Source: Alphaproteobacteria bacterium
GTDB lineage: Bacteria > Pseudomonadota > Alphaproteobacteria > JABSOH01
Assembly (NCBI GenBank): GCA_013216065.1
Contig: JABSOH010000003.1
Coordinates: forward strand, 5,684-39,579
Direction: 5' to 3'
Length of the DNA: 33,896 nt
In this document: piece after piece, positions 8,878 to 12,920 of the stretch
Numbering within the stretch: the first letter of the stretch is position 1
Layout of the letters: every line of letters begins with the position of its first letter
The notes under the pieces: model-generated
What the model saw: only the letters and a program-made list of their open reading frames with translations
Databases searched by the model: none
Told to the model about the DNA's origin: nothing
Translations under genes and position numbers: made by a program

Positions 8878-8893
8878 TGGCATACAGATTGCT
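8878..8893 (+). promoter_or_regulatory. Sigma54 -24/-12 promoter upstream of the first flgE
   Basis: TGGCATACAGATTGCT has GG/GC at the canonical spacing. It sits immediately after the flgD stop and 93 nt before ATG 8986. Confidence 0.75.
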
Positions 8894-8985
8894 TTGCTAG
8901 AGGCTTGGATAGTTTGATTTTTTTGATCTTTTTTGTTGATCTCCACAATTCATGATCAATGCACAACAGTAAAGGATACGGTCTC

Positions 8986-10785
8986 ATGTCATTGTATAGC
9001 GCACTTCGTTCAGGCGTTTCGGGTCTGTTTTCGCAGACTCAAGCCATGTCGATGATTTCTGATAACATCACTAACGTGAACACCACGGGCTATAAAGCGG
9101 TACGCGCGCGGTTTTCATCCTTGGTCGGATCCAGTTCGCAAGGCTCGTTCTCAGCCGGTGTCGTCAGCGCAATCGCTGATCGATCGGTGGCGAGGCCGGG
9201 GCAGGTGACTTCCTCGACCACCAACACCCACGTTGCGGTGAACGGTCAAGGCTTCTTTGCGGTCAGTAAGGCCGATGATGTTACGCTGGATAGAACCACT
9301 GGTACCTGGAAAACTAACGGTGAGGTGTTGTATACGCGTGCTGGTGATTTCAGCACCGACGCTAATGGGAATTTGCGCAATGCAGCGGGCTATGTTTTGC
9401 TGGGATGGGAGCGCAATGCCTCGAATACAGGTTACAATGTCTCGAACCTCGTGTCAGAATTCACCGCAGTGAACGTCGCTGGCACCGTCGGGCAGCCCTT
9501 GCCGACCCAAGCTATCACCATGAATGCCAACCTGAACGCGAGCCTCAAGGAAGGCAAGAGTTTCACCATGACCGCGCCAATGTACAGCCGTCAGGGCGGG
9601 ATTTCGAACATCGAATACCGTTTTACCAAGGTTGGGGACGGAATCTCGAAACGGGAATTTATTGTCGAAGCGCGACTCACCTCGGGTGCTGCGCAGTTAA
9701 TCAACAAGGGGAATGCACTAGCCGCGAGTGGTGGGCGGACGGTGGGCGGTACAGCCAAACAAATAGAATTTTATGGCGTGCAGTTCGGCACCAACAGCCG
9801 TCAAATTCAACTGAATTATGGCGGTGATGTCGAGCTTTCAGGAACTGCAGTGTCGAATTTCAAGGTCGAATACAGTGTCAGCGGGGTTTACACCGTTTTA
9901 GATGCTGGGACGATCGAAATACGCGGTGGTAAAGTGACGGTGACATTGAGTGGTGACATCCCATCAGATGCGCAAAATCTGCAATTTTTCCAAACTGGTG
10001 GCAGCCCATTGCGCTATAAGCGCGCGTCGGCACCGGCCTCTCCCGTGATCGCTGGTACAGGGACGCTGACAATACCAGCTCTCGGGACTGTCCGTGGAAA
10101 CGCCGCAGCAAGTACTGGGGGGCACAAGTTTACCGGATACTATGATATTGGAAAGTTGTCTTTCGATGCCAGTGGTTTGAACCCAACTCTGACGGCACCT
10201 GATGCCGTGCGTACCGCGACAGCGGGCTATTATCAGGCCGGAACCGTTGCTTTAGGTGAACTAAGTATTCTGGTTGACCACAGTTCTGACGGTGAATCGG
10301 CGACGCTGATCTCGTCGGATGATGTGAAAATTGCGATGAATTTTGCCAAGAGCGGTGCGAGTGCCGGTATGACGTCTTACGAGAGCGCCTCGACGATCTA
10401 CTCGATTGATCAAGACGGCAATAGTTCGGGCGATTTGCAATCGGTGCAGTTTAACGCCAGGGGTGAGCTACAGGCGATTTTCTCCAGAGGTGCGCCGAAG
10501 TATCTCGCGCAGATTCCGTTGATGTCCTTTAACAATCCGAATTCACTGTTGGTGGCCGACGGAAATGCCTACAAGGCTACGGACTCGGCTGGGGTTGGCG
10601 TTAGTCGTGTGGCGGGTACCGGGGATTCGGGTACGGTTGCGGGAGCATCGCTTGAAGCCTCAAACGCCGATATCGCCACCGAGTTCACCGAGATGATCGT
10701 GGTGCAACGTGCGTATTCCGCCGCGACCAAGATCATCACCACCGCTGATGAGATGCTGGATGAGGTGATCCGCGCCAAGCGTTAA
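8986..10785 (+). CDS. flgE: Flagellar hook protein FlgE (copy 1)
   Basis: I chose the start at ATG 8986 (MSLYSALRSGVSGL...) because RBS AAAGGA lies ~10 nt upstream; the ORF track start at 8959 adds 9 unlikely residues. The N-terminal rod/hook motif is ISDNITNVNTTGYK. The C-terminal motif is ATEFTEMIVVQRAYSAATKIITTADEMLDEVIRAKR. Confidence 0.92.
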   Translation: MSLYSALRSGVSGLFSQTQAMSMISDNITNVNTTGYKAVRARFSSLVGSSSQGSFSAGVVSAIADRSVARPGQVTSSTTNTHVAVNGQGFFAVSKADDVTLDRTTGTWKTNGEVLYTRAGDFSTDANGNLRNAAGYVLLGWERNASNTGYNVSNLVSEFTAVNVAGTVGQPLPTQAITMNANLNASLKEGKSFTMTAPMYSRQGGISNIEYRFTKVGDGISKREFIVEARLTSGAAQLINKGNALAASGGRTVGGTAKQIEFYGVQFGTNSRQIQLNYGGDVELSGTAVSNFKVEYSVSGVYTVLDAGTIEIRGGKVTVTLSGDIPSDAQNLQFFQTGGSPLRYKRASAPASPVIAGTGTLTIPALGTVRGNAAASTGGHKFTGYYDIGKLSFDASGLNPTLTAPDAVRTATAGYYQAGTVALGELSILVDHSSDGESATLISSDDVKIAMNFAKSGASAGMTSYESASTIYSIDQDGNSSGDLQSVQFNARGELQAIFSRGAPKYLAQIPLMSFNNPNSLLVADGNAYKATDSAGVGVSRVAGTGDSGTVAGASLEASNADIATEFTEMIVVQRAYSAATKIITTADEMLDEVIRAKR

Positions 10786-10814
10786 ATTTTTATCGCAAAT
10801 CGTGTTTTTTTCAG

Positions 10815-10842
10815 CCGACCGGAGTAATCTGGTCGGTTTTTT
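10815..10842 (+). terminator. Rho-independent terminator after flgE copy 1
   Basis: Stem CCGACCGG (10815-10822), loop AGTAAT, stem CTGGTCGG (10829-10836, one G-U pair), followed by TTTTTT (10837-10842). Confidence 0.7.
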
Positions 10843-10915
10843 GTGGCCGTGAGATGGCTCTGTTCCCACGTTCTTTGAATAAATTTTCTGGTTCATTTCA
10901 GGGTCTTGGTCTCTT

Positions 10916-10931
10916 GGCAAGGATATTGCTT
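10916..10931 (+). promoter_or_regulatory. Sigma54 -24/-12 promoter upstream of the second flgE
   Basis: TGGCAAGGATATTGCT has canonical GG-N10-GC spacing and lies 84 nt upstream of ATG 11015. Confidence 0.75.
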
Positions 10932-11014
10932 CTTGGTTGAGCATCGAATGTTTTCTTCTGTGGTCTGGGCTACGGGGTGAAGCGCAGATTGAGTAGTTCC
11001 AAGGAGTTAAGATT

Positions 11015-12862
11015 ATGAGTCTCTACAGTGCACTGCGTTCCGGAGTTTCGGCATTGCAATCGCAAACTCAGGCGATGGCGATGGTGTCGAACAACATCTC
11101 GAACCTGAACACCAACGGCTTCAAACGCACGGCAGCGAGTTTTTCGACGCTGGTCAGTGGCGCGAACACCGCCACTAATTTTGCTGGTGGTTCGGTGATT
11201 TCACGCCCCAACCTTAAGGCAACTTCGGTTGGGCAGATCACCAAGACCATGTCGAACACCGACATGGCGATCAATGGTCAGGGCTTTTTTGCGGTGTCTA
11301 AATCCAGTAGTACGGCGTTTAACGTCACCACGGGCAAGTGGGAAAACACTGACGAGGTGCTATACACGCGACTTGGAGATTTCAGCAAGAACAAAAATGG
11401 TCTGCTGGAAAACTCTGCCGGGTACATTTTGCTGGCTTGGCCGCGTAACAGCGCCAACACGGGTTATGATCAGACCAACCTTGAGGGGCAATTGAAGCCG
11501 GTCACAATCTCAAACACTACCGGAACGCCGAAGGCCACCACGACGATCAATATCAATGCCAACCTCAGTTCAAATAGCCAGGAGGCAGAAACCTTCTCGG
11601 CTACGGTCGATGTGTTTGATCGTCAGGGTACGTCGCACGTGATGAAAGTCAATTTCACGCGCTTGACCACCAAACCTCGGGCGTATACGGTTACCGCGAA
11701 TATGATTGATACCGATTCCGCTTTGATCACAAAGTACGCTCAAACCCCGAATCCAGATGTTATGAGTGCAATTTCCTCGGTATCCAATGGTGTGCAATAC
11801 GTTAAGATTAACCTCGAGACCCCTGTTGATGAAACGGCAACTATCCCTCCTTCGACTTTCACAGTGACTTACGACGAGAAATCTGGTGGTATGACCACTG
11901 CCAAAATCATTAAGGTGGATAGGATTACATTAAATGGTTCTTCGGTGCGTCTGCAATTGAGTGAGCTGATCCCGACGAGTGTTGCTGGCAGTTCTACTAC
12001 ATACGAAAACATCAAGGTCAATTATACTGGTGGAGTTCCCGCGGTCGCAGGGACTCCTACAACTACTTTGCGCGCCCAAAATCACAATACTGACGGCGCG
12101 CTTGCAAGCCCAGTCACTTATTACGATTTTGCGACCGTAGCGATCGGCAATCAGTTGGATTTCAGTGTTGAGGTTGCCGATAGCTATAATCTTGGAGAAA
12201 TCCAATTTTCAGAGGACGGCACCATTAAGGCCGATGGTAGCAGTTTGACCGCCTCTCCAGCAGGTATCTTGGGTGGGCTGGGGGTTGTTGTCGTCTCGGG
12301 TGTGAACAATGTTGGCACCACGAGCAACAATGGTTTTAATTTGAGTTTCGATTTTGCAGGAAACGGAAAAACCGCTAATCTTACTGGCGTGAGTGATGAT
12401 GTTACCACTCAACTCAACTTTGCGGCTCAAAGCGGCAATACGGGTATGACCTCGTACGATTCCCCGCACGCGATCTATTCGATCAATCAGAATGGCTCAA
12501 CGGCGGGGGCGTTCAAGTCCGTTAGCGTGAATTTTGTTGGCGAGATTGAAGCTGCGTTCTCGGTTGGCGATAATCGTAAGCTTGCGCAAGTACCCACCGT
12601 TGTGTTCTCCAGTGCTAATCGCCTCGAGCAGGTTGATGGTAATGCATTCCGCAAAACCAACAGTTCTGGCACGCAGATTATCCGTACTGCGGGTAGCGCA
12701 GGCGCGGGTTGGGTGACTTCGTCGACGCTGGAATCCTCAAACGTGGATCTTGCGACGGAGTTCACCGATATGATTGTGACCCAGCGTGCGTACTCGGCCG
12801 CGACCAAGATTATTACCACGGCCGATGAGATGCTTGAAGAATTGGTGCGGGCGAAACGTTAA
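11015..12862 (+). CDS. flgE: Flagellar hook protein FlgE paralog (copy 2)
   Basis: 615-aa ORF with RBS AAGGAG 7 nt upstream. The N-terminus MSLYSALRSGVSALQSQTQAMAMVSNNISNLNTNGFK and C-terminus ATEFTDMIVTQRAYSAATKIITTADEMLEELVRAKR are nearly the same as in copy 1. The central ~240 residues cannot be aligned with copy 1 by eye. Confidence 0.92.
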   Translation: MSLYSALRSGVSALQSQTQAMAMVSNNISNLNTNGFKRTAASFSTLVSGANTATNFAGGSVISRPNLKATSVGQITKTMSNTDMAINGQGFFAVSKSSSTAFNVTTGKWENTDEVLYTRLGDFSKNKNGLLENSAGYILLAWPRNSANTGYDQTNLEGQLKPVTISNTTGTPKATTTININANLSSNSQEAETFSATVDVFDRQGTSHVMKVNFTRLTTKPRAYTVTANMIDTDSALITKYAQTPNPDVMSAISSVSNGVQYVKINLETPVDETATIPPSTFTVTYDEKSGGMTTAKIIKVDRITLNGSSVRLQLSELIPTSVAGSSTTYENIKVNYTGGVPAVAGTPTTTLRAQNHNTDGALASPVTYYDFATVAIGNQLDFSVEVADSYNLGEIQFSEDGTIKADGSSLTASPAGILGGLGVVVVSGVNNVGTTSNNGFNLSFDFAGNGKTANLTGVSDDVTTQLNFAAQSGNTGMTSYDSPHAIYSINQNGSTAGAFKSVSVNFVGEIEAAFSVGDNRKLAQVPTVVFSSANRLEQVDGNAFRKTNSSGTQIIRTAGSAGAGWVTSSTLESSNVDLATEFTDMIVTQRAYSAATKIITTADEMLEELVRAKR

Positions 12863-12883
12863 ACGACGTATGTTATCGCCTTT

Positions 12884-12920
12884 AGCGAGCCTGTGCGGAA
12901 TGCACGGCCCCGCTTTTTTT
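12884..12920 (+). terminator. Probable rho-independent terminator after flgE copy 2
   Basis: Imperfect hairpin: CTGTGC (12891-12896), loop GGAAT, GCACGG (12902-12907). Outer AGCG (12884-12887) pairs with CGCT (12911-12914). TTTTTTT (12914-12920) follows. Confidence 0.5.

Follow-up and report, generated by a model that had tools for sequence, protein, structure and literature searches.

A tandem pair of flagellar hook genes, flgE1 and flgE2, was analyzed within a 33,896-nt stretch of DNA (hereafter the window) from an uncultured marine alphaproteobacterium that is known from metagenomes alone, the samples being partly coral metagenome. The pair is read here as an array of two co-regulated hook isoforms, E1 and E2, and the chance that these co-assemble into one hook is put at about even; taken together, the evidence leans toward a two-protein hook. 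Both genes lie head to tail on the forward strand between flgD and fliF, and both are intact: flgE1 spans 8986–10785 and encodes the E1-type hook protein (599 amino acids (aa); NCBI NQY81504.1), and flgE2 spans 11015–12862 and encodes the E2-type hook protein (615 aa; NQY81505.1). These open reading frames (ORFs) bear out an initial annotation of the same DNA, in which two full-length, undecayed hook genes had been proposed. The flgE1 start was placed at 8986 rather than at the upstream ATG at 8959 because the resulting N-terminus, MSLYSALRSG, is conserved in all relatives. In the NCBI deposit, a metagenome-assembled genome (MAG) labeled "Alphaproteobacteria bacterium," both proteins carry the generic name "flagellar hook-basal body complex protein."

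Identity of the two hook proteins

The Pfam domains Flg_bb_rod, FlgE/F/G D1 (LlgE_F_G_D1), and Flg_bbr_C were detected in both proteins above the Pfam gathering cut-offs, with LlgE_F_G_D1 scoring 35.3 and 35.4 bits in the two FlgEs (cut-off 27). The FlgE_D2 domain scored 28.5 in E2, above its cut-off of 22.7, and 17.3 in E1, below it. In AlphaFold models, D0 helices were formed by residues 4–30 and 563–598 of E1 and by residues 2–29 and 579–614 of E2. When the models were searched using Foldseek, the best matches of both were solved FlgE hooks (E = 1e-17 to 1e-24, TM-target 0.64–0.79), namely the Vibrio polar hook (8Z5Y), the Salmonella hook (7CBM/6K9Q/9GO6), and Campylobacter FlgE (5JXL), and the rod proteins FlgG and FlgF scored far more weakly. 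Judged by Pfam domains and predicted fold, E1 and E2 are bona fide FlgE. Helicobacter pylori FlgE2 (5NPY) ranked 14th for both models, with a TM-query of 0.29–0.31 versus 0.45–0.54 for Salmonella FlgE. Membership in the H. pylori-type FlgE2 group (HP0908) was rejected given this poorer fit and given that E1 and E2 are each other's closest relatives.

E1 and E2 were aligned by BLASTP over their full length at 38% identity (E = 5e-118). Alignment confirmed what had been judged by eye in the initial annotation, with 28 of the first 40 residues identical and the C-termini nearly so. When the E1 group was compared to the E2 group in 30-column blocks, identity was 77–82% at both ends, 32–60% across D1, and 8–31% in the center (E1 residues ~215–440, E2 residues ~213–455); the proposed pattern of a conserved core with a variable surface is thereby upheld.

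Early-substrate export signals have been defined in Salmonella FlgE (PMC10936197), and the corresponding motifs were matched by eye, through motif inspection only, to residues 39–43 of the Salmonella gate-recognition motif and to I376/R380/Y382. Both proteins carry the FlhB gate-recognition motif as FSSLV/FSTLV at residues 43–47 (F43 was invariant across 43–46 FlgEs) and the C-terminal signal MIV(V/T)QRAY (I..QR.Y). The third early-substrate signal, a hydrophobic N-terminus, is kept in both isoforms.

Duplication and distribution among relatives

E1-type proteins were 50–79% identical to the E1 of the window and E2-type proteins 52–70% identical to its E2, and any E1-E2 pair was 36–40% identical. 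In a distance tree built from 401 conserved columns, three groupings, E1 alone, E2 alone, and E1 with E2, were each recovered as clades in 100/100 bootstraps. By these sequence comparisons, E1 and E2 are the products of a lineage-specific duplication, rather than one being an imported second hook gene, and the duplication is older than at least four related genomes. For the termini, both gene conversion and concerted evolution were considered and rejected, as orthologs are closer than paralogs at both ends and nucleotide identity at the gene ends is 74–79%.

The survey of synteny called for in the initial annotation recovered the fliK-flgD-flgE1-flgE2 unit in four places: the window (with its counterpart contig L008), L001 (a coral metagenome contig), L003, and L002. 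Downstream of the flgE pair, L003 has mutL rather than fliF. On L002, a contig of 1.45 Mb, positions 8001–13986 hold three tandem flgE genes encoding E1a (604 aa), E1b (610 aa), and E2 (612 aa), each with its own TGGCA-N6-TTGC motif and with a terminator after each of the two upstream copies; this third copy indicates that the array expanded again within the lineage. A further contig, L010, begins at an E2-type gene, which is followed by fliF.

Two of the related contigs gave additional observations. L008 (28 kb, ERZ23490486) encodes an E1 identical to that of the window and an E2 (P0014) that differs by two adjoining residues (AQVPTVVF versus AQVRSVVF), a difference that stems either from microdiversity between strains or from the assemblies. 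On a second contig of the coral metagenome that yielded L001, a divergent E1-like flgE (L009:8133–9950; P0009, 48% identity to E1) stands alone, surrounded by non-flagellar genes (rhodanese, thioesterase). It has no exact sigma54 motif, and it has probably been annotated with 44 codons too many at the N-terminus.

A set of 5.8 billion clustered proteins contained only nine clusters of E1 type and six of E2 type. A scan of genome contigs gave no close relative among GTDB species representatives (best 40%), and a scan of metagenome contigs gave no lineage member; the loci from the latter served only for a survey of tandemness. In this small survey, with a stringent detection rule, none of the 32 diverse metagenomic loci with at least 3 kb of flank on both sides had flgE in tandem, and four more distant alphaproteobacterial loci had one flgE each. 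Tandem flgE thus appears rare elsewhere, and no paper on a tandem, separately promoted, lineage-conserved flgE array was found among open-access papers and preprints. The initial annotation had allowed that such pairs might already be common or characterized in the lineage, which was not what these searches returned.

Outer insert domains

Both proteins contain a hypervariable outer insert in D2, which covers residues 236–385 in E1 (9691–10140) and residues 232–390 in E2 (11708–12184). The limits were taken from an alignment to Salmonella FlgE, residue by residue for E2 (together with hhalign and DSSP colinearity) and then carried to E1, where the model was used as well. This alignment covers the D2 strands on both insert flanks and places E2 residue 226 opposite Salmonella 210 and E2 residue 448 opposite Salmonella 238, leaving ~195 extra residues late in D2. 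Mean predicted local distance difference test (pLDDT) scores of the AlphaFold2 models were 78 for E1 and 83 for E2, with most of the center confident. The E1 insert was modeled as a beta-sandwich (~245–345) plus a loop-rich tail, with pLDDT > 90 over most of residues 260–340.

In the initial annotation, the central ~215–240 residues of the two proteins had been called unrelated and unalignable, and the surface domains had been described as replaced. Profiles of the central regions were built from the ortholog sets of each copy and compared profile against profile using hhalign. The centers matched with a probability of 96.3% and an E-value of 1.6e-9 over 201 colinear columns. The strict interior (E1 240–420 versus E2 238–432) gave an E-value of 6.4e-9 and the N-terminal half of the insert by itself 2e-8, compared to 0.23–0.64 for crossed-half controls and 0.086 for the best of 40 column shuffles. 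Homology was strongest in the N-terminal half, and ~40–60 loop-rich residues of the C-terminal half were unalignable; across the inserts, identity was roughly 15–20%. Insert folds were compared as DSSP strings of the models. The order of beta-strands was the same in the E1 and E2 centers, and DSSP agreement at aligned insert positions was 86%, versus 46 ± 4% (maximum 54%) in slid registers and 93–94% in the D1 core.

The center was also the fastest-evolving part inside each orthogroup (28–55% identity). Given homologous profiles and a center that evolves fast within orthogroups, the low central identity between E1 and E2 points to rapid divergence of one ancestral outer domain, not to replacement. 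In sequence profiles and models alike, the two centers are homologous and colinear, with one predicted fold, and have diverged very fast. The claims that they were unrelated and had been replaced are therefore not supported, the centers being merely divergent, which is the outcome that the initial annotation had itself set against its claim.

Separate homology searches with each central domain had also been proposed. The search with the E1 insert was run exhaustively with HMMER on 1.84 billion representative proteins and yielded no convincing relative outside its own cluster and no E2-type protein; neither insert matched any Pfam family at E ≤ 10. Outside its own cluster the E1 search returned just two proteins, both giant and repetitive, P0203 (SprB/CHU_C type IX secretion protein; 23 short stretches) and P0204, and these were rejected as homologs of the E1 insert, with ~26 bits per repeat and E-values inflated by repetition. 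In other alphaproteobacterial FlgEs, the alignment columns of E1 residues 236–385 hold 7–184 residues, with ~180 residues in P0019/P0020 and 173 in Varunaivibrio P0082 as examples. By these alignments, the late-D2 site is a hot spot at which outer domains are inserted in general, in this lineage as in others, and novelty of the insertion site was dropped.

Promoters and terminators

A sigma54-type −24/−12 motif, TGGCATacagaTTGCT, was located at 8878–8893, beginning 3 nt past the flgD stop and lying 93 nt upstream of the flgE1 ATG. The corresponding motif of flgE2, TGGCAAggataTTGCT, was located at 10915–10930, 85 nt upstream of the flgE2 ATG. Both promoters had been recognized in the initial annotation and both motifs are exact, with the second having been placed one position too far downstream (10916–10931). 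Within the window, exact TGGCA-N6-TTGC has only two matches on either strand, both of them upstream of flgE genes. Given that at least two exact matches were obtained in 12 of 100 shuffles, the two matches alone are not rare, and what decides the matter is where they lie and how well they are conserved. Lineage DNA totaling 107 kb contains the exact motif 9 times, always on the coding strand (9/9) and 56–127 nt upstream of tandem flgE starts, and TGGCA-N6-TTGC(T/A) is present upstream of every flgE copy in the four arrays. In alignments of orthologous upstream regions (four for flgE1), the sigma54 motifs stand as invariant islands in diverged spacers. No sigma54 motif was found upstream of fliF or fliK. 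The sequence evidence for independent sigma54 promoters is strong; that these promoters depend on sigma54 and FlbD is suggested by the motifs, and the FlbD-like activator encoded in the cluster is probably the candidate activator of both.

Additional elements surround the two promoters. A conserved block of the 5′ untranslated region (5′-UTR), ACAGTAAAGGA, carries the flgE1 ribosome-binding site (8967–8977) and is kept in the window, L001, and L003 and almost unchanged in L002. A tandem repeat, short and T-rich (8913–8942), lies just upstream of this block, and the rest of the flgE1 leader diverges across the four genomes. Upstream of the flgE2 −24 element, a conserved box, GGTTCATTTCA (10890–10900), is kept in the window, L001, and L003. 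In general form, E2 promoters have a G[GA]TTCATTTCA box ~15–20 nt upstream of −24 that is absent from E1 promoters, except for a related sequence upstream of E1b in L002; this box may be a candidate site for a regulator or for integration host factor (IHF). The −24 element is TGGCAA for E2 versus TGGCAT for E1 in three of the four genomes, and the E2 gene of L002 has TGGCAT. Of possible enhancer sites, only the short box at 10890–10900 was seen, upstream of the E2 promoters, and no palindromic (ftr-like) enhancer was recognized. No inverted repeats flanking promoters, invertible segments, or slippage tracts were found at the locus. Phase variation is accordingly not supported, there being no inverted repeats at the promoters and the sole tandem repeat being the short T-rich one in the E1 5′-UTR.

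The terminator that had been reported to separate the two genes was recovered as an intrinsic terminator after flgE1 (10813–10842), with an 11-bp stem followed by a T-run (hairpin 10813–10838 plus U-run, ΔG −18.3 kcal/mol, z = −4.0). A GC hairpin and T-run is likewise present behind every upstream flgE copy in the arrays of L001–L003. The hairpin and U-run after flgE2 (12884–12921) is weaker (ΔG −14.4 kcal/mol, z −1.2) and, not being significant alone, is a candidate terminator; a comparable GC hairpin and T-run also follows E2 in L001. Read-through from fliK-flgD into flgE1 is possible, because the flgE1 promoter begins directly after flgD with no terminator between.

Selection on the two copies

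Synonymous sites were saturated (pS about 0.7), so that values of omega, the ratio of nonsynonymous (dN) to synonymous (dS) divergence, are rough, and core omega was taken from finite-dS pairs only. In both copies, the core had a dN of 0.10–0.15, a dS of at least 1.8, and an omega of about 0.07 or less, values that place both cores under strong purifying selection. Insert dN was 0.45–0.52 in E1 and 0.78–0.90 in E2, with omega roughly 0.15–0.5; the outer inserts evolve 4–7 times faster than the cores. Positive selection on the inserts is not supported at the crude level of these omega values, which make for a weak test as dS is saturated.

Eighteen positions were invariant within E1 and within E2 yet different between them, with 12 of the differences radical. 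All 18 fall in Dc, D1, or the D2 base and none in the insert. Strong constraint on the core, together with these fixed paralog-specific differences, means that each copy has been kept with its own version of the assembly core and with a conserved function of its own, and argues against neutral redundancy.

Flagellar gene cluster and neighboring regions

The cluster in the window runs fliK, flgD, flgE1, flgE2, fliF, fliG, a fliH/flbE-like ORF, fliN, motA, a sigma54 activator, and flhA, and thus holds a single flagellar system with one fliK, one flgD, and one fliF-fliG-fliN-flhA set. The genes fliK, flgD, and fliF and the activator gene all lie on the forward strand. The single fliK (4933–7599) encodes a hook-length control protein of 888 aa with Pfam Flg_hook at residues 763–834, and the gene order around it is the same in L001–L003. 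The single flgD (7645–8874) encodes a hook cap/scaffold protein of 409 aa with Pfam FlgD, FlgD_ig, and FLgD_tudor; the ~175 aa by which the protein is extended at its C-terminus match no Pfam family beyond these FlgD/Ig/Tudor domains. FliK is unusually long (856–956 aa in relatives), and the length of FlgD is also kept in relatives (403–413 aa); with a long FliK and an extended FlgD, the hook may be long or otherwise unusual. Downstream of the flgE pair, fliF (13280–14992; MS ring, Pfam YscJ_FliF) is the first gene of the fliF-fliG-(fliH/flbE-like)-fliN-motA-activator-flhA block. The activator gene (18734–20095) encodes an FlbD-like sigma54 enhancer-binding protein of 453 aa (Pfam Sigma54_activat, AAA_lid_14, and HTH_8) and has a counterpart at the equivalent place in both L001 and L010.

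Between the fliH/flbE-like ORF and fliN, a non-coding gap of ~590 nt (16783–17370) was observed in which only ORFs of 49 and 52 aa were called. In L001, unlike in the window, these two genes are almost contiguous, and the gap may be the remnant of a lost gene or an insertion.

The pseudogenes that had been reported around the hook genes were confirmed. A carboxyltransferase pseudogene at 2295–2981 is truncated and split, its two adjoining short ORFs matching profile positions 42–144 and 176–276 of 493. Farther downstream, a region of ~3 kb (22250–25300) is poor in genes and lower in GC (46–47% at 22–24 kb). It holds a tRNA-Leu (23167–23253), a fragment of an IS110-type transposase (23746–24000), and a Zn-dependent alcohol dehydrogenase that is frame-broken, in two frames (24517–25198). 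This region is evidence of local gene decay.

Proposed co-assembly and alternative explanations

If E1 and E2 do form one hook, they would do so as complete FlgEs (D0-Dc-D1-D2), each carrying an additional outer domain (~150 aa) in the late part of D2. A promoter for each gene, together with insulation by the terminator, would allow the two transcript levels, and hence the isoform ratio, to be set independently, and the FlbD-like activator, whose gene lies ~6 kb downstream, would probably drive both promoters, which places the two genes in class III of a Caulobacter-type hierarchy. Both isoforms would then leave through one type III apparatus, at one and the same stage, and would polymerize under a single FlgD cap into one hook, either mixed or segmented. 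The conserved core would carry the lattice contacts, and the fast-evolving outer inserts would provide two surface chemistries or mechanical variants. Export at the same stage and a single hook are expected because there is one fliK/flgD/fliF/flhA set, because early-substrate signals are present in both proteins, and because one promoter class serves both genes; the shared promoter class and shared export route are likewise what suggest co-expression and co-assembly. A more elaborate form of this proposal is a multi-component hook in which two to three FlgE isoforms, expressed from individually tunable sigma54 promoters and laid down as a mixture or as proximal and distal segments, determine stiffness or surface by their ratio or order. 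This form is held more tentatively, at somewhat less than an even chance.

Several points weigh against co-assembly. No hook containing two FlgE proteins was found described in open-access papers and preprints. The conserved termini of E1 and E2 match the family-wide alphaproteobacterial FlgE D0 consensus, are not specific to a shared lattice, and for this reason are not evidence for co-assembly. The 18 fixed core differences could mean a preference for homotypic contacts. Separate promoters and a terminator equally permit differential regulation, toward which the extra box of E2-type promoters and the TGGCAA versus TGGCAT difference also point, and no rpoN is present within the window.

The main rival explanation is that E1 and E2 serve as alternative hooks under different conditions or life stages (e.g., free-swimming versus host-associated), with a homopolymeric hook on each flagellum; it is considered unlikely. 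Independent promoters with a strong terminator between the genes fit it, as do the box conserved only at E2-type promoters (and at L002 E1b), the TGGCAT/TGGCAA difference in three of four genomes, and the paralog-specific substitutions fixed in the assembly core. The coral metagenome source suggests a host-associated lifestyle, and FlgE2 of Rhizobium leguminosarum is needed on one host plant only (PMC11103875). However, the promoters are both of the sigma54 class and nearly identical in their core elements, a single activator is visible in the cluster, no invertible segment or slippage tract was found at the locus, and two competent early substrates that are present together cannot be told apart by an export apparatus that they share. 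Next, and slightly less probable again, is an arrangement in which one copy is the structural hook and the other is either minor or specialized (rod-hook or hook-junction subunits) or exported in a non-structural role (adhesion, immune or phage decoy). Elsewhere, some secondary FlgE-like genes are non-essential or host-specific (H. pylori FlgE2, 5NPY; R. leguminosarum FlgE2), the E2 insert evolves faster than the E1 insert by dN, and L009 carries its solitary E1-like copy outside a flagellar cluster and lacking a sigma54 motif. Set against this, the whole D0/Dc/D1 core is under equally strong constraint in both copies, both genes are full length with good ribosome-binding sites and promoters, both models are nearer to genuine hook FlgE than to H. 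pylori FlgE2 by TM-query, and the two-gene unit is retained even where downstream neighbors differ.

Two further explanations are essentially excluded. Replacement of one central surface domain by an unrelated, foreign one would account for the low central pairwise identity with its many gaps, for the failure of single-sequence HMMER with the E1 insert to retrieve an E2-type protein, and for inserts that lack Pfam matches, yet it is very improbable given the colinear profile alignment, with E-values far below those of the shuffles and crossed halves, and the shared strand order with its high DSSP agreement. Divergence alone explains the low identity, as the center is the fastest-evolving part within each orthogroup. 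Least probable of all is a neutral redundant duplicate heading for loss, or an assembly artifact. The genome neighborhood is decaying and copy number varies between two and three (L002), but the pair recurs across samples and assemblies that are independent of each other, no genome has a broken ORF of either gene although dS is saturated, the cores are strongly constrained, and the paralog-specific differences are fixed. With nucleotide identity of only 74–79% even at the conserved ends, the copies reflect neither a collapsed or duplicated assembly nor recent gene conversion.

Comparison with known systems

A conserved core with hypervariable outer domains is an established rule for FlgE (PMC5069557). 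Extra outer domains have been described as D3/D4 in Campylobacter jejuni and as D3 in Caulobacter crescentus (PMC5069557; PDB 5JXL, 5AZ4, 5AY6), and, as in E1 and E2, a universal D0/D1/D2 core there carries a lineage-specific, fast-evolving surface domain inserted in D2. In the window the insertion falls between Salmonella ~210 and ~238, whereas Campylobacter D3/D4 is grafted at Salmonella 167/168, with Caulobacter D3 branching nearby (PMC5069557). Caulobacter D3 faces outward from the hook and takes part in 6-start contacts (PMC5069557), and the E1 and E2 outer inserts lie at the position that this extra domain occupies on the hook exterior. In Campylobacter and Caulobacter a single FlgE builds the hook, whereas here two diverged versions of the insert occur within one genome, such that the hypervariable outer part of FlgE can diversify inside one genome and not between species alone.

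H. pylori and Campylobacter (C. jejuni) carry FlgE together with FlgE2, and in Helicobacter the two genes lie apart in the genome. Multiple flgE genes have also been described in R. leguminosarum, with FlgE1 on the chromosome and FlgE2 on a plasmid (PMC11103875), and in Bdellovibrio, as Bd0530/Bd3395 (PMC2277423). The Rhizobium and Bdellovibrio copies are dispersed, going by the loci named in these papers, and in none of these bacteria are the copies reported as a hook-operon array or as a conserved lineage-wide pair. Such systems share with the window the presence of more than one FlgE-like gene, the extra copy in theirs having an unclear or host-specific role. E1 and E2 differ in being sister paralogs that are adjacent to one another, stand beside flgD and fliK, and have matching sigma54 promoters.

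In the Caulobacter flagellar hierarchy, sigma54 together with FlbD activates the class III hook genes, and the last gene of the fliF operon is the one for FlbD. The window compares well with this arrangement, having sigma54 promoters before the hook genes and not before fliF, and an FlbD-like activator in a fliF-fliG-x-fliN-...-activator block; it differs in having two or three separately promoted hook genes rather than one.

Hook stiffness is a critical factor both in the formation of bundles and in the steering of polar flagellates. The hook is described as a homopolymer of about 120 copies of FlgE (PMC7693769). Polymers of several subunits are known from flagellar filaments, with six flagellins in C. 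crescentus (PMC7591256), heteropolymeric filaments in spirochetes (PMC9481697), and a further case in Shewanella (PMC12291594). As in the window, several axial paralogs serve one system in these bacteria, often in tandem and with their own promoters, and D0/D1 is conserved while outer domains vary. The flagellin paralogs leave the cell through a single type III apparatus and assemble together, as E1 and E2 may. The duplicated part here is the hook subunit FlgE and not flagellin, and, since the hook is a universal joint of ~120 subunits, mixing would differ mechanically. Multiple flgE genes, variable outer domains, and multi-flagellin polymers are thus already known, and what appears to be new is a conserved, separately promoted hook-isoform array of two to three genes. 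Such an array makes the question of a heteropolymeric hook concretely testable and would give a natural system for asking whether subunit composition can tune hook mechanics, as flagellin mixing tunes filament shape. If co-assembly is correct, this would be the first described heteropolymeric flagellar hook, a counterpart of the multi-flagellin filaments.

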